Notes: generated by a model from the letters alone, not told the origin. A stretch of 64,000 bases of DNA from Verrucomicrobiota bacterium (GCA_012517205.1 JAAYVL010000121.1:66-64065); one strand, 5' to 3'. Counted from the stretch's first letter, positions 21,983 to 58,609 are shown. Numbers and translations are program-made.

Positions 21983-22049
21983 AAAGCGTCAGGGGACTGG
22001 GGTTGCGGGATTCGTAGTGCGTTACGCGCCGGGCATGGGGGGCGGGCCG

Positions 22050-23159: not shown

Positions 23160-23173
23160 AAAGCCCCCGATTC

Positions 23174-24442
23174 TTACTGGCGCTTGGACAGCACGTCCCG
23201 CTCGTAGCGTTTCACTTCGGCCAGCCAGGCGTTGCCGACGGGCACGTTCATTTGCTGGCAGTAGTAATCCCATACCGCGCCGGCGGGCAGGAGCTTGGCG
23301 TCCTCCATCAGGGCCAGGCGCGAGGTGTAGTCGCCCTCGGCCTCGAACTGCTTGAGCTTGTTAATCGGCGTCACCAGGGCAAGCAGGAGCGCCTTGACCA
23401 TATTGCGCGTGCCAATCACCCACGCCGCGACGCGATTGATGCTGGCGTCAAAGTAGTCCAGCCCAATATGCACGCGGCGGGTGTAGTCGCCCCAAACGAT
23501 CTCCTGGGCGATTGCCTGCAGCTCGTCGGTGAGGGTGACCACGTGGTCGCTGTCCCAGCGCACCCCGCGGCTGACATGGAGGGCGATCTCCGGCACGTAA
23601 TTGAGCACCGCGGAAATCTTGTCGGCAATGCCTTCCGTCGGATGATAATGGCCGGCATCCAGGGTCAGCAGGATTTGCCGGCTGGCCGCGTAGCCCAGGT
23701 AAAACTCGGACGAACCGGGCGTGTAGCTTTCGGCGCCAATGCCAAAGAGCTTGGACTCGACCGAATCCAGGTTGAGCTTCCGGTCAATCTTCTTCTTGAA
23801 GACCGCGTCCAGGGATTGGATCAGGCGCTCACGCGGGCCGCGGCGGTCGGCGGGCGTGTCCTTCATCCCATCGGGAATCCACAAGTTGGTGACGCAGGTT
23901 TTGCCCAGGGCCTTGCCGATCGCAGCACCGATTTCGCGGCAGCGGATGCCATGTTCGATCCAGAACTTGCGGATGCCCGCATCGGCGCTGGTAAGCGTGA
24001 AGCCGCCCACCACCTTCGGGTGAGCGAAATAGGTCTGATTGAAGTCCATGCCAATCTTGAGGGCCTTGGCCCAGGCAATCCAGTTCTTGAACTGGTCGGC
24101 GCTCAACGCATCGCGATCCACCTTCCGGCCGCTCATCTCGGCGTAGCAGGCGTGGAGGTTGAACCGGTGGCGGCCCGGGATGACAGAAAGCGCTTTCTCG
24201 AAGTCGCTCCGCAGTTCATTGGCGGTGCGAGCCTTGCCGGGGTAGTTGCCGGTGACGGCCAGTCCGCCGCCCAGTTCCTGGCCGGCGTTCTCGAAGCCGC
24301 CGACATCATCCCCCTGCCAGCAGTGGATCGAAATGGGGATCTGCGTCAATTGTTTCAGGGCTTTGTCCGTATCCACACCCACCTGGGCATACCGTTCTTT
24401 GGCGAGCTGGTAGGATTGTTCGATGTTCTTCGTATTGCTCAT
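23174..24442 (-). CDS. rhaA: L-rhamnose isomerase (E. coli RhaA type)
   Basis: [68 protein letters not shown] and [20 protein letters not shown] 24442 is preferred over TTG 24466. Confidence 0.92.
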
Positions 24443-29233: not shown

Positions 29234-30628
29234 TCAGGCCAGCCAGGGCTCCCGCCGCGCGCGCGCCAGCAGGCGATTTGCCTCCGCGTCGTCCGGGAAG
29301 ACTTCGCGCGCCGGATCCCACCGCAGGCTGCGGCCGAGCTGGTATGCCAGGGCCACCAAATGCCCCAGCGACGCCGAGCGATGGCCGATTTCCTCATGGG
29401 CGCTCGTCCGCCCGGCCGAGCGCAGGCAATCAAACCAGTTCGCATGATGATTATTCGCGCCAATATTCACCTTGCGGGTCGTCAGGCCCGCCTCGCGCAG
29501 GATTCCCTCCGGGCCGCCCTCAATCGGCCCGGCGCCGGACATGGAGGTGATCCAGCCGCGCTCGCCGACAAACAAACCGCCGAACAACCCCTCCAGCCGC
29601 GCCTCGGCGGGCACGGCCCGGTAGAGTTCCTTCACCTGCCCCCAATGGTCCACATGATGCAGCAGCACGCCGTTGGCGTAGCGGCAGGTGAGCGTGGGAA
29701 ACGCCCCGCTGGCCGGATGAAGGATTTCCACCGGGCCGCCGGTCTCCACGCCCAGGGCGTATTGCATCACATCCGCCGCGTGCGAATGGTAATTCGTGAT
29801 GGGCCCCGCGCCGAAAGCGCGGCAGAACGTCCACGGCACCACGCCGGGAACCGGGTTGCGGTGGTAGGCGGCGTTGTAGTCGTGCCAGGCCGCCGGCCCG
29901 ACCCACAAATCCCAATCCAGCCCCGCGGGCACAGGCTCGGCCGGCAGCGCCGGGTCGAGCGGAATATAGGATCCGCCCAGGGTGGGAATCTCGATTTTCA
30001 TCCACAGGGTGAAGGCCGCCTTCACTTTGCCCAGCCCGCCCCCACGTACGAACTGGCACACCTGGCGGATGCTGGGAATCGAACGGTATTGCGTGCCGGT
30101 CTGGAAAACGCGCGCGTAGCGGCGGACCGTCTCGACCATTTCGCGCCCCTCGCGAATCGTGAGCGAAACCGGCTTTTCGCAATACACATGCTTGCCCGCC
30201 TGCGCGGCGTGAATGGCCTGCAAGGCGTGCCAGTGATCCGGCGTCGCGATGACCACCCCATCAATATCCGACCGCGCCAGCAATTCCCGGTAATCGTGGA
30301 TGGCCGCGCAGCCGTGAAACGAGCCCGCCTCGCGCCGCGCCGCGCTGATTTCGTCCACCCGCTGCGCCCCCTCCTCCCGCCGGACGCGGTCCACGTCGCA
30401 CACGGCCACCAGTTGCGTCTGCGAATGCCCGGCCAGGATGCGCAGATGCCCGCGGCCCATCGCGCCCAGGCCGATCAGCCCGACCTGGATGCGCTCGCTG
30501 GGCGCCACCGCGCCGTTCCGGCCGCGGACGGACGCCGGGATAATCACGGGCGCCGCCAGCAGGGAAGCGGCGCCGGCGCGCAGCAGAAAGGCGCGGCGCG
30601 TCAAACCCGGTGAGTTGGTTTTTGGCAT
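29234..30628 (-). CDS. TAT-exported Gfo/Idh/MocA family oxidoreductase
   Basis: LTRRAFLLRAGAASLLAAP leader, Rossmann fold IQVGLIGLGAMGRGHL and the VYCEKP motif. Start is ATG 30628. Confidence 0.85.
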   Translation of the reverse strand: MPKTNSPGLTRRAFLLRAGAASLLAAPVIIPASVRGRNGAVAPSERIQVGLIGLGAMGRGHLRILAGHSQTQLVAVCDVDRVRREEGAQRVDEISAARREAGSFHGCAAIHDYRELLARSDIDGVVIATPDHWHALQAIHAAQAGKHVYCEKPVSLTIREGREMVETVRRYARVFQTGTQYRSIPSIRQVCQFVRGGGLGKVKAAFTLWMKIEIPTLGGSYIPLDPALPAEPVPAGLDWDLWVGPAAWHDYNAAYHRNPVPGVVPWTFCRAFGAGPITNYHSHAADVMQYALGVETGGPVEILHPASGAFPTLTCRYANGVLLHHVDHWGQVKELYRAVPAEARLEGLFGGLFVGERGWITSMSGAGPIEGGPEGILREAGLTTRKVNIGANNHHANWFDCLRSAGRTSAHEEIGHRSASLGHLVALAYQLGRSLRWDPAREVFPDDAEANRLLARARREPWLA

Positions 30629-30635
30629 AAGGCGG

Positions 30636-32420
30636 CTACTTTCTCCGGGCGAGGTCAAGGCTGACCCGGTTGAAAAACTCGATGCACCGGGCGATGTCCG
30701 GCATGGAAGCGAGCCAGTTGTGGGAATACTCCAGCCCGAACATCGTCGGCTGGAGGCCCAGCCGGTGAATTTCCTCGAGCAGGGCCGCCGTATTTCCCAC
30801 GCCGGCGCCCCACGGCACGTCGTGGCCATCCGCGCCGCGGGCGTGGAGATCGTGCATCTGGAGCGTGAGCAGGCGATCCTTCAGTTGGCGCACGCCCGCG
30901 AGGGGGTCAATGCCGGCCCGCATCCAGTAGCCCAGGTCGGCGCAGGCGCCGAGGCGCTGGCTCCGGCCCGCGCACGCTTTCAGGATGCCCGCCGGATTCC
31001 AATAAGCGGGAGAAGCCTGGGGATCATGATTATGCAAGGCCACCTTGAGATCATAGGCGTCGCAGAACTTCTCAATCATATCGAGCGACTCGGGTTTGGG
31101 CTCCGACATGAAGGTCTCGATGCCTATCTGGCGTCCGAACTCGAACACCTTCCGGCAGCCGGCTTCATCGCCGGGAATCTCCTGCAGGTAGTAGGTGAGC
31201 AGCCGGACGCCCGCGGCGTCCAGTTTGAACCGGATCTGCCGCAATTCCTCATCGGAAAGCCCCGGCTCGAAGTTCCGGGCAATGCCGCCGCCCACCTTCT
31301 GAAAACTCAGCCCGCCCATGAAGGGCAGCCCCAGCGCCGCGGTTTTCTCAATGGCCTCGAAGAGCGTGAACTTATGAAACGTGTAGGCCTCGATCCCGAG
31401 CCGCCAGCCGAGCTTCTCCTGCGCGTGGAGGGCCGGCGTCAGCCATGCGCTGGGAACGGTCGGCGCGGGAAGATCGCCCAGAATAAACTGCGCCGCGGCC
31501 AGGTAGAACGACAGCAGCTTCGGATCGCGGAACACGGCGGGATGGTGCGCAATGGTGCAGTAAAACGTCCGGCCGCGGCCATAATGGCGCACCCATGCCA
31601 GCGCGTAATCATGGTCGGCGCGCTCCGGCGGCCGGCCGGCCAGGTCGGTCTTGTCCGTGTCAATGCGCAGCAGGACGCGCACGCGCCGGCGCGAATACGG
31701 GTCCTGCACCCGGAAAAACTCGTCCCGGTAGGCGAAGTCCCGGCCGCCCAGCGCCTGGTTAAGCGGGTGCTCCGGCTCTTCGAGCTTGATGAAAACCTGC
31801 TCGTCACTCGCCCGGTGATTCGCCCCCCGCGCGCCGATCATCAAGCCAAACTCCGGCCAATCCTCGACCGCGCCCGGCCACTGGGTAAAAGCGACCGTGC
31901 TCCCATGCACCCCCATCAGGCCCCCGCCGCCATAGACAAACTCGACCAGGCTTTGCCGCAGCGCGGCATCCGTGAACAGGTTGCCCACGCAGTTGTTGAA
32001 AAAGACGCCGTCAAACTGCCGCAGGCGCTCGGGCCGGAACACTTCCGGATCCCGGCTCACCACCGTCTCGAAGGCCCCGGTCCGGCGTCCCATCAACTCG
32101 AACGCCAGGTTCGCCGCGGGAATGGAGCCATGCCCGCCGTAGTTCACGTTCCGGTCAAAGATGAGCAGTTTGCGGGGCCGGGCGGGCCGCGCCGGGGCGC
32201 GCGCGGGAAGGGCGGCTTCGATCAACTCGCGCTCCGCGCCAGCCCCCGGCCCCGACGCCGCCCGCAGCACGGCGGGGCCGCAGCCGAGCGCGAGGGCCTG
32301 GGCGGCGGCCCGAGCCAGGAAAGCGCGGCGCGTCAACGGCTTCACCCGCGCGTCCGGGAGAACCGCCAGGGAGCAATCGTCAGGGCACGTATGCGGCATG
32401 CGAATCAGGATTGTGCGCAT
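30636..32420 (-). CDS. TAT-exported fusion protein: ThuA-like domain + xylose-isomerase-like TIM barrel (sugar phosphate isomerase/epimerase)
   Basis: LTRRAFLARAAAQALALG leader. The N-terminal half is ThuA-like (KLLIFDRNVNYGGHGSI ... GLMGVHGS). The C-terminal half is an AP-endonuclease-2/xylose-isomerase-like barrel (VALHNHD ... GLEYSHN). The start is ATG 32420 (or 32399), and the stop lies 7 nt before the next gene's start. Confidence 0.8.
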   Translation of the reverse strand: MRTILIRMPHTCPDDCSLAVLPDARVKPLTRRAFLARAAAQALALGCGPAVLRAASGPGAGAERELIEAALPARAPARPARPRKLLIFDRNVNYGGHGSIPAANLAFELMGRRTGAFETVVSRDPEVFRPERLRQFDGVFFNNCVGNLFTDAALRQSLVEFVYGGGGLMGVHGSTVAFTQWPGAVEDWPEFGLMIGARGANHRASDEQVFIKLEEPEHPLNQALGGRDFAYRDEFFRVQDPYSRRRVRVLLRIDTDKTDLAGRPPERADHDYALAWVRHYGRGRTFYCTIAHHPAVFRDPKLLSFYLAAAQFILGDLPAPTVPSAWLTPALHAQEKLGWRLGIEAYTFHKFTLFEAIEKTAALGLPFMGGLSFQKVGGGIARNFEPGLSDEELRQIRFKLDAAGVRLLTYYLQEIPGDEAGCRKVFEFGRQIGIETFMSEPKPESLDMIEKFCDAYDLKVALHNHDPQASPAYWNPAGILKACAGRSQRLGACADLGYWMRAGIDPLAGVRQLKDRLLTLQMHDLHARGADGHDVPWGAGVGNTAALLEEIHRLGLQPTMFGLEYSHNWLASMPDIARCIEFFNRVSLDLARRK

Positions 32421-32803
32421 GACCCCGCCCAGGTCAAGCCCGGGGCTGGAAATTATTCGCCACGCCCGCGCCGGACGCCAGGGCGCGCGCCCGGCCGGTC
32501 CCCGGAACGGCGGCAGCCGAAAGTTGGCCGTCCGCCGGGCCCCTGTCCCACCCGCGGGCACCGAGTGTCCCGGATCAGGACAGGCCAAACCGCGCGAGGC
32601 AGCCCTTTTGCGCGCCACTCACCCGGCCGCCCTCCTCTCCCGGCGATTGGCTCGCAAACTGCGGCGACCGAAGCAAATCAGCCTGTGGTCCGGCCCGATG
32701 ACCGGGCGAAAAAGGCGAACCGCGAAGGGAACTCTCCGGTCTTACCTGGAACGGAGGCCCGCCCTGCAACGGAAGCCCGGACGACAGATTAATTGCGACA
32801 ACT

Positions 32804-33888: not shown

Positions 33889-34015
33889 TACCCTGCCTTC
33901 AGGCCGTGTACAAGGGGTGTACAAGGGGTGCCCATCAGGAGTCCATAGGATTTTAGCTGGTACACCCGGTGAGCATCCCTTGTACACCCCTTGTACACGG
34001 CCTGAAGGCAGGGTG
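33889..34015. repeat. 42-bp near-perfect inverted repeat (hairpin) built from tandem GTGTACAAGGG units
   Basis: 33890-33927 is the exact reverse complement of 33977-34014 (38 bp). The stem extends through one G-U pair (33928/33976) and three further pairs (33929-31/33973-75). The loop is 33932-33972 (41 nt). Each arm holds two exact tandem 11-mers, GTGTACAAGGG (33906-16, 33917-27; mirrored at 33977-87, 33988-98). Confidence 0.9.
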
Positions 34016-34591: not shown

Positions 34592-34713
34592 CCGGCCCGG
34601 CGTGCCGGCCATCGGCGAGGCAATTCCCTGGAAAGCGGATTTACATCCGGAATGCCAAACCCTATAGTTGGCAAATGACGCCAACCGGGGTTCCCCGGTG
34701 CGGCGGCGAGCTT

Positions 34714-35076
34714 ATGCTGGTGCATTTATTAAAGTCGAAAATACATCGCGCGCGGGTGACGGCGGGCGACGTAAATTATGAGGGCAGCCTGGGTATTGCC
34801 CGCGACCTCATGGATAAAGTGGGGTTGTTGCCGTACGAGCGCATTCTCTGCGGCAACATGGCCAATGGCGAACGATTTGAGACCTACGCCATAGCCGCCG
34901 AGCCGGGCTCGGGCCAGATCATCCTCAACGGCGCCACCGCCCGACTCGGCAAACCGGGCGACCTGATCACGATTTTAAGCTTTACCGAGGTGGAATGGGC
35001 CGCCGCCCAGACCTGGAAACCCCGCGTCATTGTGCTCGGGGAAGACAACCGGATCATCCGTGAACGCGGAATTTGA
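34714..35076 (+). CDS. panD: aspartate 1-decarboxylase
   Basis: MLVHLLKSKIHRARVTAGDVNYEGSLGI (Gly-Ser self-cleavage site), then ...ILNGATARLGKPGDLITILSF. Confidence 0.9.
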   Translation: MLVHLLKSKIHRARVTAGDVNYEGSLGIARDLMDKVGLLPYERILCGNMANGERFETYAIAAEPGSGQIILNGATARLGKPGDLITILSFTEVEWAAAQTWKPRVIVLGEDNRIIRERGI

Positions 35077-35126: not shown

Positions 35127-37154
35127 ATGGCGCATAAACTGACCACTTGCACCTTCTGCGGGGTCGGCTGCGGGATTTATCTGGAGGCGGTTGGCAACCA
35201 GATCGTGGGGGCCTATCCCAGCATGTCGCATCCGGCGAACGAGGGCCGGATTTGCGTGCGAGGCTGGCATGTGCACGAGGTGGCCAGTTCCCCCGGCCGG
35301 TTGAAACGCCCGCTGCTCAAGAAGGGCGGCCAGTTCGAGGAAGTGTCGTGGGAGGAGGCGCTCGGTTTCATCATCGGCCGCATGAAGGAGCTGCACGCGC
35401 GGCACGGCGCGGAGGCCTTCGCTTTTCTCAACTCGCCGCGCTGCTCCAACGAGGAATCGTACCTGCTGCAAAAGCTGGCCCGGGCGGTCATCGGAACCAA
35501 CAACGTGGACCACGGCACCGGGGTTTACTGCAACAATTCCATCAATGTCCTGCTCGACATGCTCGGCGTGCCGGCGACGACCAATTCCATCGGCGAACTG
35601 GCCCGCAGCGAGGTCATCATCGTGGACGGCGTGGACCTGGCTCTCCAGTTGCCCAGCATCGGCGGAACCGTCATCCGGGCCAAGCTGGCGGGGGCCACAC
35701 TCGTGGTCATTGACAGCCGGCGCCACCGGGTGGCGGAAAGCGCGGACCTTTTCCTGCAACTCAAGCCCGGCACGGAGCCGATCCTCTACGGCGCCCTGGC
35801 CAAGGTCATTGTGGACCGCGGCCTGATGAACCTGCCGTTCATCAAGGCCCACTGCCGCGACTACGACCGGTTTCTGGCGCGGGTGCGGGATTACGATTTG
35901 CTGGCGGCGGCCGAGGCGTGCGGCGTGGACGCGGGGCTGATTGAGGCGGCGGCCCTGGCTTACGCCCGGGCCCGGTCGGCGGCGATTCTGTATTCGACCG
36001 GCATCGAGGCCCGCGACGCCGAACCGGTGCAGGCCATTGTGAACCTGGCGCTGTTGACGGGGCAAATCGGGCGGGAAGGCGCGGGCATCTTCGCGCTGAC
36101 CGAGCACAACAACCTGCAAGGGGTCTGCGATATGGGCATGCTGCCCGACCGGTTGCCGGGCTATCGCCAGGTTGACAGCGCGGCGGCGCGCGCGGAGGTG
36201 GGCCGGGTCTGGCAAACGAAATTGCCGGCCGCACCCGGCCTGGCCTCGCGCGCCATTTTCAACAACCGCGGCGCCAGCCCGGTGCGCGCGATCTGGCTCT
36301 GCCGCTACGACCCGGTGAGCTCCGCCTTCTTCGGCGACGCGGCGGACGCGCTCGACCGGTGCGAGCTGGTCGTGGCGCAGCATTTGTTTCTCACGGACAC
36401 CGCGCGCCACGCGCATGTGGTCCTGCCCACCACCGCCTTTGGCGAGGAGCAGGTGACCTTTACCAACACCGAACGCCGCATTCAACTGGCGGAGCAGATT
36501 ATAGATCCGCTGCCCGGCACCACCCCCGCCTGGCGGCAGTTGACCCAGGTGGCGCGCGCGCTGGGCGCTGACTGGCGATATGAGTCGGCCGCCGACGTGA
36601 TGGACGAGATCGGCGCGGTCATTCCCTTCTACGGCGGCGCGAACTACCGCAACCTGGCCGCCGAATACGGCCGGCAATGGCCGTGCAGCAAGGACCGGCC
36701 GCTCGGCACGCGCTATCTCTTTGCGGACGGCCTGCCGGCGCAGGGGTTCAAGTTTGCGCCGATTGCCCGCCATGCGCCGGCGGCGGTGGTTTCGGACGAA
36801 TACCCCCTCACGCTGGTCTTTGGTCATTCGCTCTATTACTGGAACCAGAGCGTGCTGATCAAACACAGCGAGACACTGAAGCGCGAGTACCGCATCCTGC
36901 TGCTCGATTACCCGGAAGGCTTCGTCGAAATCAACCCCGCCGATGCCCAGCAAGCCGGCATCCGCGACGGGGAAAAGGTGCGGCTGACGGCCGCCGGCGG
37001 CTCGGCGGTGATCAACGCCCGGGTCACCTCCGAGGTGCGCCAGGGGGCGGTCTATGTGCCGTATTTTGTGCGGCAGGTGCAGCGGCAAATCTGCGGCGCG
37101 GCGCAAAGCGGCGTCCAGCTCATCCCGGCGCGCATCGCGAAGGAGCCCGCATGA
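35127..37154 (+). CDS. molybdopterin (bis-PGD) oxidoreductase, FdhF/NuoG-like, non-canonical active site
   Basis: The N-terminal 4Fe-4S motif is CTFCGVGCG...C. The protein is collinear with E. coli FdhF as recalled (QKLARAVIGTNNVD..., NNLQGVCDMGMLPD..PGY). The Sec/Cys-His and Arg positions are not conserved (see findings). There is no in-frame TGA. Confidence 0.85.
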   Translation: MAHKLTTCTFCGVGCGIYLEAVGNQIVGAYPSMSHPANEGRICVRGWHVHEVASSPGRLKRPLLKKGGQFEEVSWEEALGFIIGRMKELHARHGAEAFAFLNSPRCSNEESYLLQKLARAVIGTNNVDHGTGVYCNNSINVLLDMLGVPATTNSIGELARSEVIIVDGVDLALQLPSIGGTVIRAKLAGATLVVIDSRRHRVAESADLFLQLKPGTEPILYGALAKVIVDRGLMNLPFIKAHCRDYDRFLARVRDYDLLAAAEACGVDAGLIEAAALAYARARSAAILYSTGIEARDAEPVQAIVNLALLTGQIGREGAGIFALTEHNNLQGVCDMGMLPDRLPGYRQVDSAAARAEVGRVWQTKLPAAPGLASRAIFNNRGASPVRAIWLCRYDPVSSAFFGDAADALDRCELVVAQHLFLTDTARHAHVVLPTTAFGEEQVTFTNTERRIQLAEQIIDPLPGTTPAWRQLTQVARALGADWRYESAADVMDEIGAVIPFYGGANYRNLAAEYGRQWPCSKDRPLGTRYLFADGLPAQGFKFAPIARHAPAAVVSDEYPLTLVFGHSLYYWNQSVLIKHSETLKREYRILLLDYPEGFVEINPADAQQAGIRDGEKVRLTAAGGSAVINARVTSEVRQGAVYVPYFVRQVQRQICGAAQSGVQLIPARIAKEPA

Positions 37155-38233
37155 AAGCCCGCTTGCTGGAACGCGCTCAGGTGCTGACGCTGGTGGATCT
37201 CCTCCGGCAGCAGGGCTACGACGTATTTGCCCCCTTTGCCGGGCGCGGGCGCGACACGTGGTTCGACCTGGTCACCGACGAAAATCGCGGCCAGGTCCAG
37301 ATTCATTTGCCCAACCCGTATTATCCGCCCAAACGCTTTGTCCTGCCGCATATCGAGCGGTTGCTGAAGGTGCGGCGGCACGATGGAACCTTCCACATCG
37401 AGCCGATTTACCGGGAGCGCAAGCGCGCCATCTTCGGCCTTCGCTCCTGCGACCTGGCCGGCATCTGGCACCTGGACCGCTTCTACCTTGGGCGCGAGTT
37501 TCGCGATCTCTATTACCAGAAACGCCGGGAGAACCTGCTCCTGATCAACGTGGTCTGCACGGACCTGGAGCGCGATATTGGGGACGAGTGCTTCTGCGTA
37601 TGCGCCGACACCGGCCCGGCGGCGCGCGATCATTTTGACCTGCAGCTCATGGACCTGGGCGACGAGTTCATGGTTGTTGCCGGCACGGCGGCGGGCGAGG
37701 CGTTCTTCACCCAGCCGATGTTCCGGCCGGCCACGGCGGCGCACGTCGAAAAACGCCGCGCCATCCTGGCGGAGGTGCGCAAACGGTTCAAGACCACCAC
37801 CAGTTGGTTTGCGGCCACGGTGCGCTACGTTTCCCGGGGCGACATCCTGGAGCAGACGTGGGAGGAAATCGGCAATCGCTGCCTGGAATGTGGCGGCTGC
37901 ACCTACGTTTGCCCCGCCTGCACCTGCTTTACCGTCAGCGATCGCCAGGTGGGCCCCGACGAAATCGAGCGGGTGCGCATCTGGGACGCCTGCGCCCTGA
38001 GCGGATTCACGCGCATGGCCGGCGGCTTCAACCCGCGCCGCGCGGTGCATGACCGCCGCAACCGCCGCTTCATGCGCAAGCTGGCGCATTACTTCATCCA
38101 GCGCGAGTTGACCATGGCCTGCGTGGGCTGCGGCCGCTGCGCGGCGGTTTGCCACGGAGATGTCGGCATGCCCAGCGTGGTCGAGATGATCCGGCGGGCC
38201 ACCGCGATCCACGACCGGATTCCCCCCTCATGA
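37151..38233 (+). CDS. 4Fe-4S dicluster protein, AsrA / sulfhydrogenase beta (HydB)-like
   Basis: ATGA overlap with the upstream stop. Cluster motifs are CLECGGCTYVCPACTCF and CVGCGRCAAVCHGDVG. The overall layout matches anaerobic sulfite reductase subunit A / HydB. Confidence 0.8.
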   Translation: MKARLLERAQVLTLVDLLRQQGYDVFAPFAGRGRDTWFDLVTDENRGQVQIHLPNPYYPPKRFVLPHIERLLKVRRHDGTFHIEPIYRERKRAIFGLRSCDLAGIWHLDRFYLGREFRDLYYQKRRENLLLINVVCTDLERDIGDECFCVCADTGPAARDHFDLQLMDLGDEFMVVAGTAAGEAFFTQPMFRPATAAHVEKRRAILAEVRKRFKTTTSWFAATVRYVSRGDILEQTWEEIGNRCLECGGCTYVCPACTCFTVSDRQVGPDEIERVRIWDACALSGFTRMAGGFNPRRAVHDRRNRRFMRKLAHYFIQRELTMACVGCGRCAAVCHGDVGMPSVVEMIRRATAIHDRIPPS

Positions 38234-39105
38234 ACCCGACCCTCCCCAAGGTGACTTCCTGCGAACCGGCGGAAGAAAATATCTATCTGCCCAAGCTCGC
38301 GGTGCTGGACCGGGTGACGGACGACATCCCGGAGGTAAAGACCTTCTACTGGCATTTTGAGGATCCGGCGGAGCAGGCAAAGTTCAAACGGTTCCGCCCT
38401 GGCCAGTTCGCGCAGGTGTCGTTGTTCGGCGTCGGTGAATTTCCGGCCTCGCTGCCCCCCAGCCCGACCGAGGAGGAAACCTTCTTCACCATCCGCACGG
38501 TCGGCAGTTGCACCGCCGCGCTGCACCAGTTGCGGCCCGGCGACCGGTTTGCCGTCCGCGGCCCCTACGGCAACGGGTTTTCCATGGAGGATTATTACGG
38601 GAAAAACCTGGTGTTTGTGGCCGGGGGCATCGGGCTGATCCCGCTGCGCTCCTGCATCGTGTACGCGCTCCGGCACCGGGATAAATATCAGCGCATCCAG
38701 ATTTTCTACGGCGCCCGGACGCCGAAGGAGTTGATGTATGTCCCCAACCTGCGCGAGTGGCAGCAATCGGCGGGCGTCGAATGCCATCTCACCGTGGATC
38801 GCGCGGCGGAGGGCTGGGACGGCCCCGTGGGTGTGGTCGGCAGCCTGTTCCAGCGGCCGGGGGTGAAGATTCCGGTGGAGAACACCATCGCCTTTGTCTG
38901 CGGCCCGCCCATCATGTTCCGCTTCGTAATCAAGGACCTGCTGGCGATGGGGTTTCAGGAAAAGGACATCGTTTCGACGCTCGAACGGTATATGAAGTGC
39001 GGCGTCGGCAAATGCGGCCACTGCTGCATCGGCGTGGCCTACGTGTGCGTGGACGGCCCGGTGTTCACCTACGAGCAAATCAAGAAACTGGGAGAGGATA
39101 TCTGA
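38230..39105 (+). CDS. FAD/NAD(P)-binding 2Fe-2S oxidoreductase, AsrB / sulfhydrogenase gamma (HydG)-like
   Basis: ATGA overlap with the upstream gene. Motifs are RPGQFAQVSL, FFTIRTVG (FAD), LVFVAGGIGLIPL (NAD(P)) and a C-terminal CGVGKCGHCC...C 2Fe-2S site. Confidence 0.8.
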   Translation: MNPTLPKVTSCEPAEENIYLPKLAVLDRVTDDIPEVKTFYWHFEDPAEQAKFKRFRPGQFAQVSLFGVGEFPASLPPSPTEEETFFTIRTVGSCTAALHQLRPGDRFAVRGPYGNGFSMEDYYGKNLVFVAGGIGLIPLRSCIVYALRHRDKYQRIQIFYGARTPKELMYVPNLREWQQSAGVECHLTVDRAAEGWDGPVGVVGSLFQRPGVKIPVENTIAFVCGPPIMFRFVIKDLLAMGFQEKDIVSTLERYMKCGVGKCGHCCIGVAYVCVDGPVFTYEQIKKLGEDI

Positions 39106-39659
39106 TGCCCGACCTGCGCCAATTGCTCGCACCGCTCCTCCAGGGCCGCGTCTGCCTGGTGGGGATCGGGAATGTGGACTATGGGGACGATGGCTTCGGG
39201 GTGCGGCTGGCGGAAGCGCTGCAAGCCTCGCCCATCACGGCGGAGGTGATGATTGCCGGCTCCGCTCCCGAGCGCTGCCTGGGGCGGGTGGCGAACGGGG
39301 GCTTTGAGCGCGTGATCTTTCTCGACGCGGTGGACTTTGGCGGCGCGCCGGGCGCGGTGATCCTGCTCGATGCGCGGGAGCTAATCGCCCGGTTCCCGCA
39401 GGTTTCCACGCACAAGCTTTCGCTGGGCCTGCTGGCGCGGCAAATCGAGGCGCAGGGCCGCATACGCGTCTGGCTCCTGGGCGTGCAACCGGAATCACTT
39501 AAGCTCCGCGGCGCTCTGACGCCCACGATACAGACTACCCTGGAACTGTTGCATGCGTTGCTGACCGCCGGCGCGGAGAATTGCCGGCTGGCGCGGTCGG
39601 AATCGCCGGAGCCCGGCTCCAAACCTGCGGAAACCACCCTCCGGGAGGTGCTGGCATGA
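39105..39659 (+). CDS. [NiFe]-hydrogenase maturation endopeptidase (HycI/HyaD family)
   Basis: TGATG overlap with the upstream gene. Motifs VCLVGIGNVDYGDDGFG, IFLDAVDFG and THKLSL resemble HycI. Confidence 0.8.
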   Translation: MPDLRQLLAPLLQGRVCLVGIGNVDYGDDGFGVRLAEALQASPITAEVMIAGSAPERCLGRVANGGFERVIFLDAVDFGGAPGAVILLDARELIARFPQVSTHKLSLGLLARQIEAQGRIRVWLLGVQPESLKLRGALTPTIQTTLELLHALLTAGAENCRLARSESPEPGSKPAETTLREVLA

Positions 39660-41572
39660 CGCCCGAACAATCAGTCCTGGCGGCCATTGTCCTCTGCCTC
39701 GGCGGGGCGGGACTGACCCTGCTGGCCTCGCGGAACAAGACAGTCGCGGGTGGGCTGGCGTTCGTGTTCACCCTGGCGGCGGCGGTGATAATGGTCTCGA
39801 CCGTGACCCGGGTCCTCATCTCCGGGCCCGGGCACTCGGCGGAGTTTAGCCTTCTGCCACAGATTGGCCTGGTGCTGCGGGTCTATGTGGACGGCCTGAC
39901 GGCGCTTTTCCTGTTGTTGACCGCGCTGGTCTCCGTGCCCGCCGCGCTTTATTCGGTGGTGTATATGCGGAACTATGAAGGTTATAGCGCAGCCCGCTAC
40001 TACCCCTATTTCCTGATCTTCCTGGCGGCGATGTACGGCCTGGTGAGCACGACCGACATGATGTGGTTCTTCTTCATCTTCTGGCAGATGATGACCCTGC
40101 CGGGCTACGCGCTCATCCGGTTCGAGCACCGGAAACCGGCCAACATCCGCGCGGCCAACCGGTACCTGGTCATGATGCAAATCGCCTGCGCCGCCACGAT
40201 GATCGGCGCCGAATTGCTGGCGGTGGCGGGCGCCACTACGAGCGGCAGCCCGGGCCTGAAGTACGATTTCGATACCGTCAGCGCCAACCTGCCGGCGCTG
40301 CTCAGCGCCCGGCCCGGCATGACCGCCCTGGCCTTCGCGTTGTTCCTCGCGGGCTTTGGCATCAAGATGGGCATGTGGCCGTTTGGCCAGTTCTGGCTGC
40401 CGGATGCGCACCCCGCCGCGCCGTCGCCGGTCAGCGCAATGCTCTCCGGCGTGATGATTAAGACCGGCGTTTACGGGCTGATGCGCTACTTCCTCTGGCT
40501 GGTGCCGCCGGCGGGCCTGGCGGATTACCCGCTGGCCCCGTGGGGGCTGGTGGTCGCGCTGCTGGGCACGATCACCCTCTTTACGGGCACCATGCAGGCG
40601 CTCAAGCAGGAGCAGTCCAAGCGATTGCTCGCCTTCCATAGCATCGGCCAGGTCGGCTACATCCTCCTGGGCACCGGCGTCTGCATGAGCCTCCTGCCCG
40701 CCGCAGATCCCCGGGCGGCGGCGCTGGCCGCCCTCGGCTTCTGCGGCGCGCTGCTTCACGTGCTCAACCACGGTCTTTTCAAGGCGCTGCTCTTCCTCAA
40801 CGCCGGTTCGATGCTGCAGGCCACCGGCACCCAGGATCTGAACCGGATGGGCGGGCTGATGAAGTTCATGCCTCTCACCGCCATCACCGCGCTCGTGGCC
40901 TCCTGCTCGATCTCCGGGGTGCCGCTCTTTAATGGCTTTATCAGCAAATGGACCATCTACGTCGCGGCGGTGCAGGGATGCGGCTCCGCCAAATACCTCG
41001 CCGTCTGCGCCCTCCTCGCCATCCTGACCAGCGCCCTGACGCTGGCCTCGTTCATCAAGTTCTTCGGGGTGAGTTTCCTTTCGCGCGCGAGCGCGCTGGT
41101 GACCGCGCGGGCGGCCCGGCCCGGGCGGCTGGAAGTGGGCTGGACGATGCAGTTGCCGCAAGTCGCCCTGGCCCTGGCCTGTGTGTTGCTGGGCGTGGCG
41201 CCGGCCCTGGGCTTCCGTTTGGTGCAGCGAGTTCTGGAAACCAGCAGTTCGGGCTGCGGCACGGCGCTGGCCGCCGCCGCGCCCCTGCAAACCAGCCTGT
41301 GGAGCGGCGTGGCGCAACTGCAATCCGCAGCCTTGTTCGCCCCGCTGGTCCTGGCCGCGGCGCTGGGTCTGCTGCTGCTGGCGGCGCACGCGCTTTCCCG
41401 GATCGGCCATGCGTCGCGCCGGGCCACTGCGCCGTGGCTCTGCGGCTACGCGCGCGAGGCCGATTGCCACCGCTATTCCGCTCACAACTTCTACGCCGAA
41501 ATCAAACGCTACTTCCGCTGGCTGGGCGGGGCTCCCGATAACCGCAATTTGCACCCGGAGGAAAAACCATGA
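39656..41572 (+). CDS. hydrogenase membrane subunit, NuoL/HycC/HyfB-like antiporter-type
   Basis: ATGA overlap with the upstream gene. 638 aa and polytopic, with antiporter-like motifs (WPFGQFWLPDAHPAAPSPVSAMLSGVMIKTGVYG, AFHSIGQVGYILLG). Confidence 0.85.
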   Translation: MTPEQSVLAAIVLCLGGAGLTLLASRNKTVAGGLAFVFTLAAAVIMVSTVTRVLISGPGHSAEFSLLPQIGLVLRVYVDGLTALFLLLTALVSVPAALYSVVYMRNYEGYSAARYYPYFLIFLAAMYGLVSTTDMMWFFFIFWQMMTLPGYALIRFEHRKPANIRAANRYLVMMQIACAATMIGAELLAVAGATTSGSPGLKYDFDTVSANLPALLSARPGMTALAFALFLAGFGIKMGMWPFGQFWLPDAHPAAPSPVSAMLSGVMIKTGVYGLMRYFLWLVPPAGLADYPLAPWGLVVALLGTITLFTGTMQALKQEQSKRLLAFHSIGQVGYILLGTGVCMSLLPAADPRAAALAALGFCGALLHVLNHGLFKALLFLNAGSMLQATGTQDLNRMGGLMKFMPLTAITALVASCSISGVPLFNGFISKWTIYVAAVQGCGSAKYLAVCALLAILTSALTLASFIKFFGVSFLSRASALVTARAARPGRLEVGWTMQLPQVALALACVLLGVAPALGFRLVQRVLETSSSGCGTALAAAAPLQTSLWSGVAQLQSAALFAPLVLAAALGLLLLAAHALSRIGHASRRATAPWLCGYAREADCHRYSAHNFYAEIKRYFRWLGGAPDNRNLHPEEKP

Positions 41573-43239
41573 CCGCGCGCGAACGTCTCAACCAGTTGAA
41601 GGAGAAGTTTGGCCCGGCCATCCAGCGCGCGGACCTGCCCGGCGACTCCCGCCTGTTTGCCTATGTCGAGCCCGCCACGCTCAAGGCCGTCTGCCAGTAT
41701 CTTTTCCGCGAGTTGGATGCCCGCTACGTCATCAGCATCGGGCTCGATGACCGGCCTTTCTCGGGCAAGTTTCTCGTCGCCCATAACTTCGCTTTCGACC
41801 GCGATCGTCTGCTGTGCAGCATGCTGGCCCACCTGCCCGCGGACCACCCGGAGGTGGACAGCATCGCCCCCGCCGTGCCCGGCGCCAACTGGGCCGAGCG
41901 CGAATTTCGCGAACTGGTTGGCATCGAGCTCCGCGGCCATCCCTATCCCAAACGGCTGGTGCTGCCGGATGGCTGGCCCGACGGCGTGCACCCGCTCCGC
42001 AAGGACGTGCCCTGGAACCAGGTGCCGGCGGACTTCGATGAGAATGCCGAGTTCACCTTCGACGACCCGCCGGCGGGCTGCACCGTGGTGCCGTTCGGGC
42101 CCTTCCATCCGACCCTGGACGAGCCGGAGCATTTCCGGCTCTACGTCGAGGGCGAAATGGTGCGCGGCTGCGAGTACCGCGGCTTTATGGTGCACCGCGG
42201 CATCGAGAAGCTGGCTGAATCCGTCCTCACCTACAACGACATCCCGTTAATGGCCGAACGCATCTGCGGCATCTGCGGCTGCGTGCATAACGTCACCTAT
42301 GCCCAGGCGGTGGAAACGGCCGTGGCGCTGCGCCCGCCGCCCCGCGCCGAATACATCCGCACGATCATGCTCGAAATCGAGCGGCTGCACAGCCATTTGC
42401 TCTGGGTCGGGCTGGCCTGCCACATCGTGGGCTTCGACACGCTTTTCATGCAAAGCTGGCGCATCCGCGAGCCGATCATGTGGATCGCGGAAAAGATCAG
42501 CGGCAACCGCAAGACCTATGCGCTCTGCGTCATCGGCGGCGTGCGCTGGGATATTACGCCCGAGGTGAAAGTGGAACTGCGGCACCTGCTGGACAAGCTG
42601 GAGAGGGAATGGCGCGAGGTTGTGGCCGCCGTGAGTCGGGACAAGAATATCCAAAAACGCACGCGCGGCGTGGGCGTGGCGGATCAGGCGCTGATCAAAT
42701 CCCTCGGGCTAATCGGGCCGGTCGCGCGCGCGGCGGGAGTGGATATTGATTGCCGCCGCGATCATCCCTATGCCGCCTACGACCGCGTGGATTTCGCGGT
42801 CATCACTGATACCGGCGGCGATGTTTGGTCGCGCGTCGTGGTGCGCATGAACGAGGTGTTCGAATCCATCCGGATTATTCGCCAGTGCCTGGAAAAAATG
42901 CCGGAGGGGCCGCTGCAGGCGTCCATCCCGGATGAACTCCCGCCCGGCCGCCTGGGGCTGTCTTCGGTCGAGGCGCCGCGCGGCGAGAGCCATCATTTCG
43001 TCATTACCGGCGAGAATAACCGTCCACACCGCTGGCGCGTGCGCGCGCCCACCTACCAGAATCTCCAGGCGGTGCCGATGATGATCAAGGATCAGCAACT
43101 GGCGGACATGACCATTTCTCTCGGCAGCATAGACCCCTGCTTCTCCTGCACGGATCGGCTGGAGACGATTGACCTGAAATCGGGCGCGACGCGGGTGTGG
43201 TCGCAGGCTGAACTCATCCGGCTGGTGAGAAAGACCTGA
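41569..43239 (+). CDS. group-4 [NiFe]-hydrogenase large subunit, HycE-type (NuoC-like + NuoD-like fusion)
   Basis: ATGA overlap with the upstream gene. The N-terminal NuoC-like part carries NWAEREFRELVGIELRGHPYPKRL. Ni-Fe ligand motifs are RICGICGCVH and DPCFSCTDR, followed by a 26-aa C-terminal extension, the expected protease substrate. Confidence 0.9.
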   Translation: MTARERLNQLKEKFGPAIQRADLPGDSRLFAYVEPATLKAVCQYLFRELDARYVISIGLDDRPFSGKFLVAHNFAFDRDRLLCSMLAHLPADHPEVDSIAPAVPGANWAEREFRELVGIELRGHPYPKRLVLPDGWPDGVHPLRKDVPWNQVPADFDENAEFTFDDPPAGCTVVPFGPFHPTLDEPEHFRLYVEGEMVRGCEYRGFMVHRGIEKLAESVLTYNDIPLMAERICGICGCVHNVTYAQAVETAVALRPPPRAEYIRTIMLEIERLHSHLLWVGLACHIVGFDTLFMQSWRIREPIMWIAEKISGNRKTYALCVIGGVRWDITPEVKVELRHLLDKLEREWREVVAAVSRDKNIQKRTRGVGVADQALIKSLGLIGPVARAAGVDIDCRRDHPYAAYDRVDFAVITDTGGDVWSRVVVRMNEVFESIRIIRQCLEKMPEGPLQASIPDELPPGRLGLSSVEAPRGESHHFVITGENNRPHRWRVRAPTYQNLQAVPMMIKDQQLADMTISLGSIDPCFSCTDRLETIDLKSGATRVWSQAELIRLVRKT

Positions 43240-43240
43240 T

Positions 43241-44161
43241 ATGAGCCTCGTCACCGTCATCCTGGGTTTCCTGGTCAACGTCGTCCTCGTGCTGCTGCTC
43301 GCCCCCCTGTTTCAGGGCGTGTTGCGCAAAGTCACGGCCCAAGTCCAATCGCGCCAGGGCCCGCCGCTTCCGCAGCCTTACTTCGATCTCCTCAAATTGC
43401 TGGGCAAGGAGGACCTCGAGTCCGGCCAGATGCCCGCTATGCAGCGATTCGCGGCCTGCCTTTCGCTGGCCACCATGCTCACGCTTGCCGGACTGGTGCC
43501 AATGGGTTTCGCCGCGCCTTTGAACGGGGCGGGCGATGTGATTCTGGTGATCTATCTCCTGACGCTCTCCGGCATCTGCACGTTGCTGGCGGGTTTGGCG
43601 GCCGGGTCCACCTATTCCCTGGTCGGCATCAGCCGTGAAATGATGACCATGATCGCACTCGAACCCCTGTTCGCCGTGGCCATTATCGCTGGGGCCATCC
43701 ACACGGGCTCTTTCCGGCTGGATACGGTTTTCAATGGCTCCGTGTATGCCGGGAACACCTTCCCCTGGTCGGGACTGATTCTACTGGGAGTAATCCTGTT
43801 ATCCTTCCAAGCCTTCGTGCAGCGGGTGCCGTTCGACCTTTCCGAGGCGGAAACCGAGTTGATGGAAGGGCCGCTGATGGAATACTCCGGCCCGAAGCTG
43901 GCGCTGTTCAAGTATGCGCAAATGGCCCGGCTCGTCATTTACAGTGCGTTGTTCGTGAACCTGTTCGTGCCATGGGGTTCGGCCCTGGCGTTCCCGCTTG
44001 GCTGGCTGCTCTTTTGGCTCAAAGTGTGCGGCCTGGTGCTGCTGGTGACGCTCGTGGCGGCCACGCACGCCCGCTACCGGATTGACCAGGCTCTTCGCTT
44101 CTTCGCCGCTCTGCTGGGCGTGGGGCTGGGAGCTTTGATCCTCGCCTGTTATGGTTACTGA
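43241..44161 (+). CDS. hydrogenase membrane subunit, NuoH/HycD-like
   Basis: 306 aa and polytopic, with NuoH-like motifs (RKVTAQVQSRQGP, FDLSEAETELMEGPLMEYSG). Confidence 0.85.
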   Translation: MSLVTVILGFLVNVVLVLLLAPLFQGVLRKVTAQVQSRQGPPLPQPYFDLLKLLGKEDLESGQMPAMQRFAACLSLATMLTLAGLVPMGFAAPLNGAGDVILVIYLLTLSGICTLLAGLAAGSTYSLVGISREMMTMIALEPLFAVAIIAGAIHTGSFRLDTVFNGSVYAGNTFPWSGLILLGVILLSFQAFVQRVPFDLSEAETELMEGPLMEYSGPKLALFKYAQMARLVIYSALFVNLFVPWGSALAFPLGWLLFWLKVCGLVLLVTLVAATHARYRIDQALRFFAALLGVGLGALILACYGY

Positions 44162-44170
44162 AAAGCTCGC

Positions 44171-44695
44171 ATGTCTCTCTTAAGCAAATTGCAGGAAACC
44201 CTGGTCTGCCTCAAAGCGGGGCGCGTCACGCTGCCGTACCCCGCGCAGGCGGGCCCCGTGCCGGAAACATTCCGCGGACGGCCAATCTTTGACGCGGCCA
44301 GGTGCATCGGCTGCGCCGGTTGCGCCAGCAATTGCCCCGCGCGTGAAATCCTGGTCGTGGATGTCTGCCAGGAAATCCGCATCCTGCAATACCTCGGGCG
44401 CCGCTGCACCTACTGCGGGCGCTGCGCGGATGTATGCCCTGAAAAGGCCATCACCATGAGCCGCGAGTTCGAGACCGCCACCGACCGCATCGGCGATATT
44501 CGTCAACGGCTGGAGCTGTTCATGAGCACCTGCCAGCGCTGCGGCCGCTGCTTCACAGAACCCTCACCCTTGGAACAGTTGAAACTCAAGGGCTACCGCT
44601 TCGACGACGTGCAGAACGAACGTTGGATTTTCCGATCGCAAGCTTACCTGACGAGTGAAGCGGCCGTGGACGATATCAGCATTGACCTGGACTAA
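44171..44695 (+). CDS. 2x[4Fe-4S] ferredoxin subunit, NuoI/HycF-like
   Basis: CIGCAGCASNCP and CTYCGRCADVCP, plus an extra CQRCGRC. Confidence 0.85.
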   Translation: MSLLSKLQETLVCLKAGRVTLPYPAQAGPVPETFRGRPIFDAARCIGCAGCASNCPAREILVVDVCQEIRILQYLGRRCTYCGRCADVCPEKAITMSREFETATDRIGDIRQRLELFMSTCQRCGRCFTEPSPLEQLKLKGYRFDDVQNERWIFRSQAYLTSEAAVDDISIDLD

Positions 44696-44877
44696 TGAGA
44701 AAACTGCCTGCGAGATCCGCCCAATGGCGCTAAAAGGATGAAGACGGTTGAAGGTCTAATCTACATGAACGATCCGGCTCTAACGGAAGGAGAAGGTTTT
44801 GCGGTGTTTCAATCCGGACTACGGAGTTCAAACACCCATATTTTAGCGCCTCTGGCCCTGTTTTGCGGACAATCGCC

Positions 44878-45414
44878 ATGTTAAGGAATCTGTGCCAGAA
44901 GATGTTTGGGCGCTCGCTGTGGGTGTATCACGCCAACAGCGGTGGGTGCAATGGCTGCGACATCGAAGTTTTGAATGTCCTGACTCCCTATTATGACGTC
45001 GAGCGCTTCGGCATCAAACTGGTCGGTTCACCCCGCCATGCCGACGTCATGCTCTGCCAGGGCCCGGCGATGCGTTCCACCGCCAAAGCACTGCAGCGCG
45101 CTTACGAAGCCATGCCCGCCCCAAAACTCGTGTTTGCCATCGGCTCCTGCGCCTGCGGCGGCGGCATCTGGTTTGACTCCTATTCCGTGCTGGGGCCAGT
45201 TGAAAAGCTCGTGCCGGTTAATTTCTATATCCCCGGCTGTCCGCCACGGCCTGAAGCCATCATTTATGGCGTCGCTGTAGCTGTGGGGTTGGTGGACAAA
45301 AAGGTGGCGCCCGTGACGTTCAAACAACTGGAAATGCCCATCCCGCGTTACCATCCTGCCGACCTGCGCGGCTCCGGCGAGTTGATCGTTTACGAGAAGG
45401 CCGAGAAGGTGTAG
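44878..45414 (+). CDS. [NiFe]-hydrogenase small subunit, NuoB/HycG-like
   Basis: GGCNGCDIE, GSCACGGG and IPGCPPRPE cluster ligands. ATG 44878 is preferred over TTG 44863. Confidence 0.88.
   Translation: MLRNLCQKMFGRSLWVYHANSGGCNGCDIEVLNVLTPYYDVERFGIKLVGSPRHADVMLCQGPAMRSTAKALQRAYEAMPAPKLVFAIGSCACGGGIWFDSYSVLGPVEKLVPVNFYIPGCPPRPEAIIYGVAVAVGLVDKKVAPVTFKQLEMPIPRYHPADLRGSGELIVYEKAEKV

Positions 45415-58599: not shown

Positions 58600-58609
<10 letters not shown>
57884..58609 (+). CDS. sdhC: succinate dehydrogenase/fumarate reductase cytochrome b subunit (b558 family)
   Basis: 241 aa with five hydrophobic helices carrying conserved His residues. It sits directly upstream of, and overlaps, sdhA. 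Confidence 0.75.

Follow-up and report, generated by a model that had tools for sequence, protein, structure and literature searches.

The operon at positions 35,127 to 45,414 of a Verrucomicrobiota contig (GCA_012517205.1, JAAYVL010000121.1; the whole stretch analysed, 64,000 nucleotides from 66 to 64065 of the contig, is referred to here as the window) combines a Hyc-type group 4 [NiFe]-hydrogenase core with a set of soluble proteins that do not belong to the classical formate hydrogenlyase (FHL). These are an FdhF-like protein of the molybdopterin family, devoid of the catalytic residues of formate dehydrogenases (FDH), and two proteins homologous to the beta and gamma subunits of soluble NADPH-linked hydrogenases (Table 1). 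No characterised enzyme has this subunit composition. Judging from the sequence, we give a probability of about 0.5 to the reading that the products of the operon make up one NAD(P)H:H+ (H2) oxidoreductase that translocates ions and contains a formate-blind subunit resembling NuoG.

In public databases the family of the large subunit is labelled either "Ni,Fe-hydrogenase III / formate hydrogenlyase" or "NADH-quinone oxidoreductase subunit C", and metabolic reconstructions therefore count it as formate-dependent H2 production. It is a very abundant, cross-phylum and mislabelled type of hydrogenase, the substrate of which is probably not formate. If NAD(P)H is the substrate, then for several dominant phyla the models of fermentative H2 release and redox balance in anoxic soils, peat and digesters would have to be revised. 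The operon would also represent a natural experiment on a Hyc-type core that accepts a different input module, and a living parallel to the retention of a catalytically dead molybdopterin domain by complex I.

The hydrogenase core

Families were assigned with Pfam and NCBIfam profile scans, complemented by comparison with PDB structures and with E. coli proteins (tblastn). The solved structure closest to the large subunit was E. coli HycE (7Z0S_E, 425 bits), with P. furiosus Mbh (group 4d; 6CFW_L, 246 bits) and complex I well behind. At E 1e-124 there is no doubt about the fold. The protein is 39% identical over its full length to both HycE and HyfG of E. coli, and the remaining core subunits show identities of 48% (HycG), 35% (HyfB), 31-36% (HycD/HyfC) and 34-36% (HycF/HyfH) to their E. 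coli counterparts. This agrees with the formate-hydrogenlyase (Hyc/Hyf) type attributed to the core in the initial annotation of this DNA. All the elements expected in a group 4 [NiFe]-hydrogenase are present, i.e. both CxxC motifs, the NuoB- and NuoI-like subunits, and the NuoH-like and antiporter-like membrane subunits. The same can be said of the FHL core, with its HycC/D/E/F/G-type subunits, fused NuoC-NuoD and HycI processing gene.

The conservation of ligands was judged in alignments of 60 to 82 orthologues, depending on the subunit. The four cysteines that would bind the Ni-Fe site (C233, C236, C524 and C527) show no variation across 60 orthologues. Invariant cysteines were also found in the HycG-like small subunit (C24, C27, C91 and C121) and in the HycF-like subunit, in which the eight cluster cysteines are accompanied by C121, C124 and C127. 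In the membrane subunits, the invariant K269, H368, H372 and K468 of the HycC/HyfB-like protein match the same residues of E. coli HycC and HyfB, and the invariant E202/E204/E206 and E141 of the HycD-like protein correspond, in the alignment, to E199/E201/E203 and E138 of HycD from E. coli. The sequence ERICGICGCVH was detected in 72 of 87 clade-A records scanned, which include identical copies, and SIDPCFSCTDR in 69 of the records. We also searched for selenocysteine versions of both motifs, which could have tied the family to the selenocysteine-containing group 4b clades reported by Takano et al. (2026, PMC13582414). None was present in 72 loci of the window clade and 22 of a sister clade described below.

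The intact Ni-Fe motifs, the C-terminal tail of 26 residues and the HycI-type protease had all been pointed out initially, and all three were recovered by translation, Pfam and alignment. In E. coli the HycI endopeptidase cleaves the tail of HycE, and by analogy the protease encoded here presumably removes the tail after Arg530. Since all four Ni-Fe cysteines are invariant, and both HycI and a cleavable tail are present, we dismissed an assignment to the degenerate Ehr/Mbx-type complexes. The core is, as far as its residues can tell, a working hydrogenase.

The soluble arm and the FdhF-like subunit

In an FHL of the Hyc/Hyf type the FDH is linked to the hydrogenase by a poly-ferredoxin, HycB or HyfA. 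The lack of a HycB-type ferredoxin had already been noticed from the sequence and we could confirm it: tblastn with E. coli HycB, HyfA, HyfE and HycH retrieved no homologue from the window, and none of the nine genes has the Pfam architecture of HycB. The second and third genes, described initially as an AsrA/AsrB-type pair similar to the beta and gamma subunits of group 3b hydrogenases, are indeed of this kind, and the most similar proteins are those of the P. furiosus soluble hydrogenase I (SHI, 9NEZ). The beta-like protein had one PDB match only, to SHI beta (9NEZ_B, E 5e-36), with NCBIfam scores of 148 bits for HydB (NF040833, cut-off 750) and 133 bits for AsrA (TIGR02910, cut-off 323). 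Its 16 cysteines are all invariant in 82 sequences, and 15 of them align with cysteines of SHI beta. For the gamma-like flavoprotein the best PDB match was SHI gamma (9NEZ_C, E 3e-56), and the scores were 201 bits with the sulfhydrogenase gamma model (cut-off 650) and 193 bits with the AsrB model (cut-off 289). The cysteines of its [2Fe-2S] cluster (C257, C262, C265 and C273) are invariant and common to SHI gamma.

The operon shares with SHI, a group 3b enzyme, the beta/gamma NADPH module, the pattern of cysteines and the FAD/NAD-binding domain, although the scores of both homologues fall far under the NCBIfam equivalog cut-offs. Unlike in SHI, the catalytic partner is a membrane-bound group 4 hydrogenase and not a soluble group 3 alpha/delta dimer; the ShyA and FrhA models covered only an N-terminal stretch of 60-150 residues. 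Similarly, the pair matches the AsrA and AsrB models of the sulfite reductase AsrABC, but under the cut-offs and with lower scores than those of the SHI beta and gamma models and structures. Among the window ORFs (open reading frames) scanned, no AsrC-type sirohaem subunit (NIR_SIR) was found.

The FdhF-like protein obtained 553 bits with the FDH alpha model TIGR01591 (cut-off 666). Its closest structures were the HDCR FdhF (7QV7, 419 bits), F420-FDH and E. coli FdhH (334 bits). To compare the catalytic site, the protein was aligned to E. coli FdhH together with 72 orthologues. The four cysteines of the [4Fe-4S] cluster (8, 11, 15 and 42 in this alignment) are 100% conserved, and Lys44 is an arginine in 72 of 72. 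At position 140, that of the Sec/Cys ligand, there is tyrosine in 65 orthologues and phenylalanine in 7, while His141 is replaced by C (47), S (14), G (6), A (3) or R (2). In the place of Arg333 we found T (47), S (15), A (6) or N (4), followed in all the orthologues by glutamate instead of Gly334. The loss of FDH catalytic residues suspected at the outset was thus complete, with Sec/Cys140, His141 and Arg333 replaced in the 72 sequences, and nothing in the operon corresponds to the catalytic FDH subunit of an FHL. From these replacements the subunit is predicted to be formate-blind. Cys135, located beside Tyr134, was considered as a shifted Mo ligand and rejected, given that only 47 of the 72 orthologues have this cysteine.

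In the wider comparison, 107 of the 214 positions that are invariant across three divergent canonical enzymes are changed in the FdhF-like subunit. We also examined the 78 positions conserved at 90% or more in 67 cluster representatives of canonical FDH. Of these, 48 are kept, including the segment FLTDTARHAHVVLP...TFTNTERR, and 30 are lost, including H181, P203, G402, G453, T579, R581, N662 and K679. The lost C-terminal positions vary within the family (R/K/Q at N662, D/N/S at D670, Q/gap/R at K679). Several of the lost positions belong, we assume, to the pterin/guanine-binding motifs of Mo-bisPGD enzymes, and therefore a loss or remodelling of the cofactor site appears likely.

These data bear directly on whether the operon could be a genuine formate hydrogenlyase, with formate oxidised at a non-canonical site and the beta/gamma pair acting as an outlet to NAD(P)+. 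The best HMM and PDB matches of the FdhF-like subunit are formate dehydrogenases, and both the public annotation and one paper name such acidobacterial clusters FHL (fdhF, hyf). Nevertheless, the catalytic triad is replaced in every orthologue and also in the sister clade, and the TIGR01591 score stays under its cut-off. Besides, no formate channel (focA) or pfl gene was detected by Pfam among the ~50 main ORFs of the window. The hyp and fhlA genes are likewise missing from these ORFs; the initial annotation had listed hyp, focA and fhlA as absent. A sigma-54 activator with GAF/PAS domains and FhlA-like architecture is found near the cluster in other genomes and could be counted in favour, but in only 9 of ~80 loci. 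Altogether we consider a formate hydrogenlyase very improbable.

Actually, FDH-like subunits that are catalytically dead seem to be common. The family of the window protein was sharply bounded in a search of the whole library, in which representatives at 57% and 51% identity were followed by others at 37%. About half of the 140 nearest full-length FdhF-like sequences (representatives of clusters at 50% identity) are without the Cys/Sec-His-Arg set, for example P0185, P0193, P0216, P0248, P0297 and others, and some of these bear an N-terminal NuoG-like extension of 210-260 residues. Downstream of the more distant representatives, too, there are beta- and gamma-like genes.

Distribution, proposed mechanism and relatives

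The proteins of the window were present on more than 100 public contigs labelled as Verrucomicrobiota, coming from anaerobic reactors and similar samples. More than 5,000 public homologues of the large subunit were retrieved at E ≤ 1e-30, the best 120 being 79-88% identical. Using the beta-like protein as query, and keeping one genome per species, we recovered 80 loci at 69-91% identity. According to the record titles, 35 of them belong to Verrucomicrobiota (including a Methylacidiphilum metagenome-assembled genome, MAG), 28 to Acidobacteriota and 8 to Nitrospirota, with single loci from Methylomirabilota, Omnitrophota, Armatimonadota, Planctomycetota, Lentisphaerota, Geobacteraceae, Anaeromyxobacteraceae and Desulfobacteraceae. 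These 80 best species-level genomes are all MAGs, with no cultured carrier among them. The identities do not track taxonomy, which indicates lateral transfer.

Of 81 non-redundant loci, 56 have all nine genes in the same order, and at least 10 phyla are represented. Of the other 25, 20 were cut by contig ends, four lack the antiporter-like (HyfB) gene and one has no detectable HycI. The co-occurrence of AsrA/AsrB-like genes with a HycE-type subunit, which the initial annotation suggested looking for, is therefore found in complete and collinear form in 56 loci of other species, and the arrangement is not a product of chance. The gap between the FdhF-like and beta-like genes is 20 nt or less in 64 of 64 loci, and the flavoprotein and HycI genes overlap or abut in 52 of 64. 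The flanking genes, on the other hand, are not conserved. Among 651 clustered flanking ORFs from ~80 loci no family was present in more than 9, so there is no tenth conserved gene; the commonest were the sigma-54 GAF/PAS activator mentioned above (9 loci, e.g. L020 2105-4438; absent from the window), HypF (7) and, immediately downstream of the cluster, HypA (6).

Furthermore, a sister clade found in metagenomes through the beta-like protein, and belonging to the more distant FdhF-like representatives mentioned above, had the identical order of nine genes in 22 of 23 long contigs, the remaining one ending after HycI. Its identity to the window is only 33-37% for the FdhF-like protein, 35-41% for beta, 48-54% for gamma, 50-55% for HycE and 64-73% for HycG, and in this clade too the Ni-Fe motifs are intact and the FdhF-like subunit is degenerate. 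Taken together, the distribution and the linkage indicate that the architecture is old, stable and mobile as a unit.

This genetic linkage is what suggests one complex of eight structural subunits, although the order in which they dock is guesswork. We propose a Hyc-type group 4 [NiFe]-hydrogenase core in which the soluble electron-input arm has been exchanged. NAD(P)H would be oxidised at the FAD of the gamma-like flavoprotein, and the electrons would pass through its [2Fe-2S] cluster to the [4Fe-4S] clusters of the beta-like protein, then to those of the HycF- and HycG-like subunits, and finally to the Ni-Fe site, where protons would be reduced to H2 in a reaction that is expected to be reversible. 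The FdhF-like subunit, with its [4Fe-4S] cluster, would be a scaffold or a side branch, like the molybdopterin domain of NuoG that lacks the cofactor, and the HycC- and HycD-like subunits would couple turnover to ion movement.

The direction of this coupling would depend on the concentration of H2. NAD(P)+/NAD(P)H has a standard potential (E0') of -320 mV, compared with -414 mV for H+/H2, and the potential of the latter rises by about 30 mV for each tenfold drop in H2. Transfer from NAD(P)H to H2 is therefore exergonic below ~60 Pa of H2, and such values are typical of soils and digesters. At low H2 the exergonic reaction could pump ions and conserve energy. At higher H2 the ion-motive force might be spent to vent reductant, or H2 might be used to make NAD(P)H. 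In AlphaFold3 models of related group 4b clusters, the SHI-gamma-like subunit is located on the Fe-S network of the large subunit (Takano et al. 2026, PMC13582414).

Two sets of observations weigh against the mechanism just described. One is that conservation of the FdhF-like subunit is still strong, with a mean column identity of 0.68, and that several residues have newly become invariant where the active site used to be, namely Arg45, Glu326, Leu330, Trp390 and Tyr571-Trp572. Conservation of this kind indicates that the subunit has a function, and the new residues could form a new catalytic site rather than part of a passive scaffold. The other is that Ech-type hydrogenases take ferredoxin directly at the NuoI-like subunit, and by analogy the soluble trio might, in principle, not be needed for the core to function.

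The first set leads to a three-terminal enzyme, in which the FdhF-like subunit would bind pterin and turn over a third substrate, with electrons bifurcated or confurcated among H+/H2, NAD(P)+/NAD(P)H and this substrate. In the published AlphaFold3 models the Fe-S network does have branches to the SHI-gamma-like and FdhF-like subunits as well as to the large one (Takano et al. 2026, PMC13582414). The strong purifying selection on the subunit, the newly invariant Glu326 and Arg45, and the 48 canonical positions that are kept would be explained as well. However, no protein ligand for Mo is left, with position 140 occupied by Tyr or Phe and the adjacent Cys not conserved, and the many canonical positions lost, variable at the C-terminus, suggest relaxed cofactor binding. 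In addition, the sole flavin site is a FAD of the FNR/PyrK type, which we take to be the non-bifurcating flavin in the known relative NfnAB. In our opinion a third substrate is rather unlikely.

The second set leads to two enzymes sharing one operon, a soluble NAD(P)H oxidoreductase made of the FdhF-like, beta- and gamma-like proteins and an Ech-like, ferredoxin-dependent hydrogenase of five subunits. Ech-type complexes need no added input subunit, as is well established, and one locus (L093) has an FdhF-like and beta-like pair with no group 4 hydrogenase gene in the 7.6 kb that lie 5' to it; this contig stops directly behind the beta-like gene and leaves the hydrogenase side uncovered. Yet on every contig of sufficient length the hydrogenase genes come after the trio, both in the 56 complete and in the 22 sister-clade loci, and we found no counter-example. 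The gene for the HycI protease lies between both halves, overlapping or abutting the flavoprotein gene as described, and in SHI the beta/gamma pair is a dedicated partner of the hydrogenase. A split into two enzymes is, in view of this, quite improbable, and we retain the single NAD(P)H-linked complex.

One of the closest known systems is the E. coli FHL-1 (Hyc, group 4a; 7Z0S/7Z0T). Both have the core of five subunits, HycI, the cleavable tail and a subunit of the FdhF family with one [4Fe-4S] cluster. In contrast to FHL-1, the window operon has neither HycB nor HycH, its FdhF-like subunit is without Sec/Cys-His-Arg and Lys44, and it has two additional proteins, a FAD/NAD(P)H flavoprotein and a poly-[4Fe-4S] protein. 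The gene order differs as well: the window operon opens with the soluble arm and hycI, has the large-subunit gene ahead of hycD and includes fdhF.

The initial annotation had also placed the operon architecturally between FHL/Ech-type hydrogenases and complex I. The likeness to complex I holds for the NuoB/C/D/H/I/L-type core and for the non-catalytic domain of the molybdopterin family that keeps its Fe-S cluster, and a flavoprotein that would oxidise nicotinamide is shared too. The input module is not homologous: the flavoprotein is of the FNR/PyrK type, with FAD and [2Fe-2S], and not an FMN-containing NuoF/NuoE (no Complex1_51K or 2Fe-2S_thioredx domain was found by Pfam in the operon), and the FdhF-like protein begins at its [4Fe-4S] motif, without the N-terminal Fe-S domain of NuoG. 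The acceptor site is moreover a Ni-Fe centre and not a quinone pocket. Because the input modules are not homologous, the parallel with complex I is one of analogy, by parallel recruitment. More tentatively, and with somewhat less confidence than we would give to an even chance, the operon may represent a second and independent route to a complex-I-like machine. Along this route an FHL would have given up the oxidation of formate, retained the dead FDH as a NuoG-like Fe-S scaffold and recruited an NAD(P)H flavoprotein module other than NuoEF. The outcome would be a reversible, ion-pumping NAD(P)H:H+ oxidoreductase and a major, hitherto uncounted route of H2 production or consumption in soil and peat Acidobacteriota, Verrucomicrobiota and Nitrospirota.

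The combination of subunits had been described at first as unrecognised. This holds among characterised enzymes, and a full-text literature search on the combination of gene names gave no matching paper, but similar sets have been noticed in silico on two occasions. Matheus Carnevali et al. (2019, PMC6349859) reported an 'enigmatic' group 4 cluster in Saganbacteria (RX5A) with a molybdopterin protein for which classification as FDH was not possible, together with asrA-, asrB- and cooF-like genes that the authors compared to nuoE/nuoF. Takano et al. (2026, PMC13582414) found that about half of the Fdh proteins of group 4b clusters are without Cys/Sec and co-occur with homologues of SHI beta and gamma, and proposed bifurcation or confurcation with an unidentified third substrate. 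Both share with the window a group 4 hydrogenase, a molybdopterin protein that is not a canonical FDH and an AsrA/AsrB-type pair, and the three cases are known from sequences only. According to their published descriptions, those clusters contain a HyfE-like subunit, several Mrp-type antiporters and an extra ferredoxin or CooF, and in Saganbacteria NuoC and NuoD are separate. These differences set apart the family of the window as a lean Hyc-type version, with one antiporter-like subunit, fused NuoC-NuoD and no extra ferredoxin.

Some variation was found among the loci. The antiporter-like gene is wholly missing between HycI and HycE in the Verrucomicrobiota loci L072, L078, L080 and L081, while five loci have a second one (677 aa, Proton_antipo_M) between HyfB and HycE (e.g. 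L021 4765-6798), most of them belonging to the 56 complete ones. In a Verrucomicrobia MAG (GCA_016716505.1, locus L005) a HoxEFUYH-type NAD-linked set, similar to group 3d, comes directly after the nine-gene cluster (14458-19410). The L029 locus has HypF nearby (5220-7667) and HypA immediately downstream (18622-19074), neither of which is in the window. In L093 the distant FdhF-like and beta-like pair (7662-10858, + strand) is located downstream of a sensor kinase and a sigma-54 response regulator. Farther upstream (2-2520, - strand) there is a second beta/gamma pair beside a fragment of a NuoB-like small subunit, possibly a group 3b hydrogenase.

Operon coordinates and surroundings

The nine ORFs are tightly packed on the + strand and the window has a G+C content of ~63%. 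Nine genes on one strand and five translationally coupled junctions had been reported, and our analysis reproduced them, with ATGA at 37151, 38230, 39656 and 41569 and TGATG at 39103-39107; only the start of the last gene had to be adjusted. The stop of the HycE-type gene and the start of the HycD-type gene are 1 nt apart. The ORF of the HycG-like subunit opens at a TTG (44863), and the ATG at 44878 fits the gene call of 178 aa on identical public contigs and is most likely the true start.

Table 1 Features of the operon and of its products, in window coordinates
Feature	Position	Strand	Evidence
FdhF-like molybdopterin-family subunit, 675 aa	35127..37154	+	Pfam Molybdop_Fe4S4, Molybdopterin, Molydop_binding
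[4Fe-4S] (FS0) ligands C8, C11, C15, C43, then Arg45 for Lys44	35148..35255	+	alignment
Tyr134-Cys135 replacing the catalytic pair Sec/Cys140-His141	35526..35531	+	alignment
Thr325-Glu326 replacing catalytic Arg333-Gly334	36099..36104	+	alignment
Poly-[4Fe-4S] protein, sulfhydrogenase beta / AsrA homologue, 360 aa	37151..38233	+	Pfam Fer4_22
FAD/NAD(P)H-binding [2Fe-2S] flavoprotein, sulfhydrogenase gamma / AsrB homologue, 291 aa	38230..39105	+	Pfam NAD_binding_1, DHODB_Fe-S_bind
HycI-type large-subunit maturation endopeptidase, 184 aa	39105..39659	+	Pfam HycI; TIGR00072 98 bits, above cut-off
HycC/HyfB-like antiporter-type membrane subunit, 638 aa	39656..41572	+	Pfam Proton_antipo_M, Proton_antipo_N; hydrogenase-4 subunit B 397 bits
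HycE-type [NiFe] large subunit, NuoC+NuoD fusion, 556 aa	41569..43239	+	Complex1_30kDa, Complex1_49kDa, NiFeSe_Hases
N-terminal Ni-Fe ligand motif RICGICGCVH	42259..42288	+	aligns with E. coli HycE ligands
C-terminal Ni-Fe ligand motif DPCFSCTDR	43132..43158	+	aligns with E. coli HycE ligands
C-terminal extension of 26 aa after Arg530	43159..43236	+	aligns with cleaved tail of E. coli HycE
HycD/HyfC (NuoH-like) membrane subunit, 306 aa	43241..44161	+	Pfam NADHdh, 210 bits
HycF/HyfH (NuoI-like) 2x[4Fe-4S] subunit, 174 aa	44171..44695	+	Pfam Fer4 families; NF006076 HyfH 102 bits, NF009053 101 bits
Spacer between HycF and HycG genes, 182 nt, 50.5% G+C	44696..44877	no strand	blastn: only identical contigs L001-L004
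HycG/HyfI (NuoB-like) small subunit, 178 aa	44878..45414	+	Pfam Oxidored_q6

The spacer between the HycF- and HycG-like genes is specific to this organism, the median gap at the same junction being 6 nt in the relatives, and it had no match in Rfam. The junction is also interrupted elsewhere, for example by a PDDEXK_3 gene in L005 (13292-13714) and by a gap of ~500 nt in L011.

The neighbouring genes are unrelated to the hydrogenase. The panD gene (34675-35076) ends 50 nt upstream of the operon and a GH116 glycosidase begins 195 nt downstream. Promoter-like and terminator-like sites between 33400 and 46000 were as frequent as expected from shuffled sequences (2 vs 2.7 and 12 vs 11.8, respectively), and hence uninformative about transcription units. 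The sole match of an Rfam scan of the same region was a sub-threshold miRNA family at 33915-33989, at a good distance upstream from the operon. Near the operon the + strand has a single sigma-70-like promoter match (34640-34668), located just upstream of panD. This gene may be co-transcribed with the operon in this organism, but in other genomes it shows no linkage to the cluster.

Two long ORFs of the window gave no Pfam match, one at 30438-32792 (+, 784 aa) and the other at 53476-55452 (-, 658 aa). The first may be no real gene, since it overlaps a GFO_IDH_MocA-type gene of the other strand and public calls put a ThuA-domain gene on the - strand there. Finally, the regions 17831-24442 and 57884-61256 contain a rhamnose cluster (RhaA, RhaT, FGGY kinase), pyruvate kinase, a class-II aldolase, the flavoprotein and Fe-S subunits of a succinate dehydrogenase/fumarate reductase, a sulfatase and a GH116. 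Such surroundings suggest that the lifestyle is sugar-fermenting or facultative.

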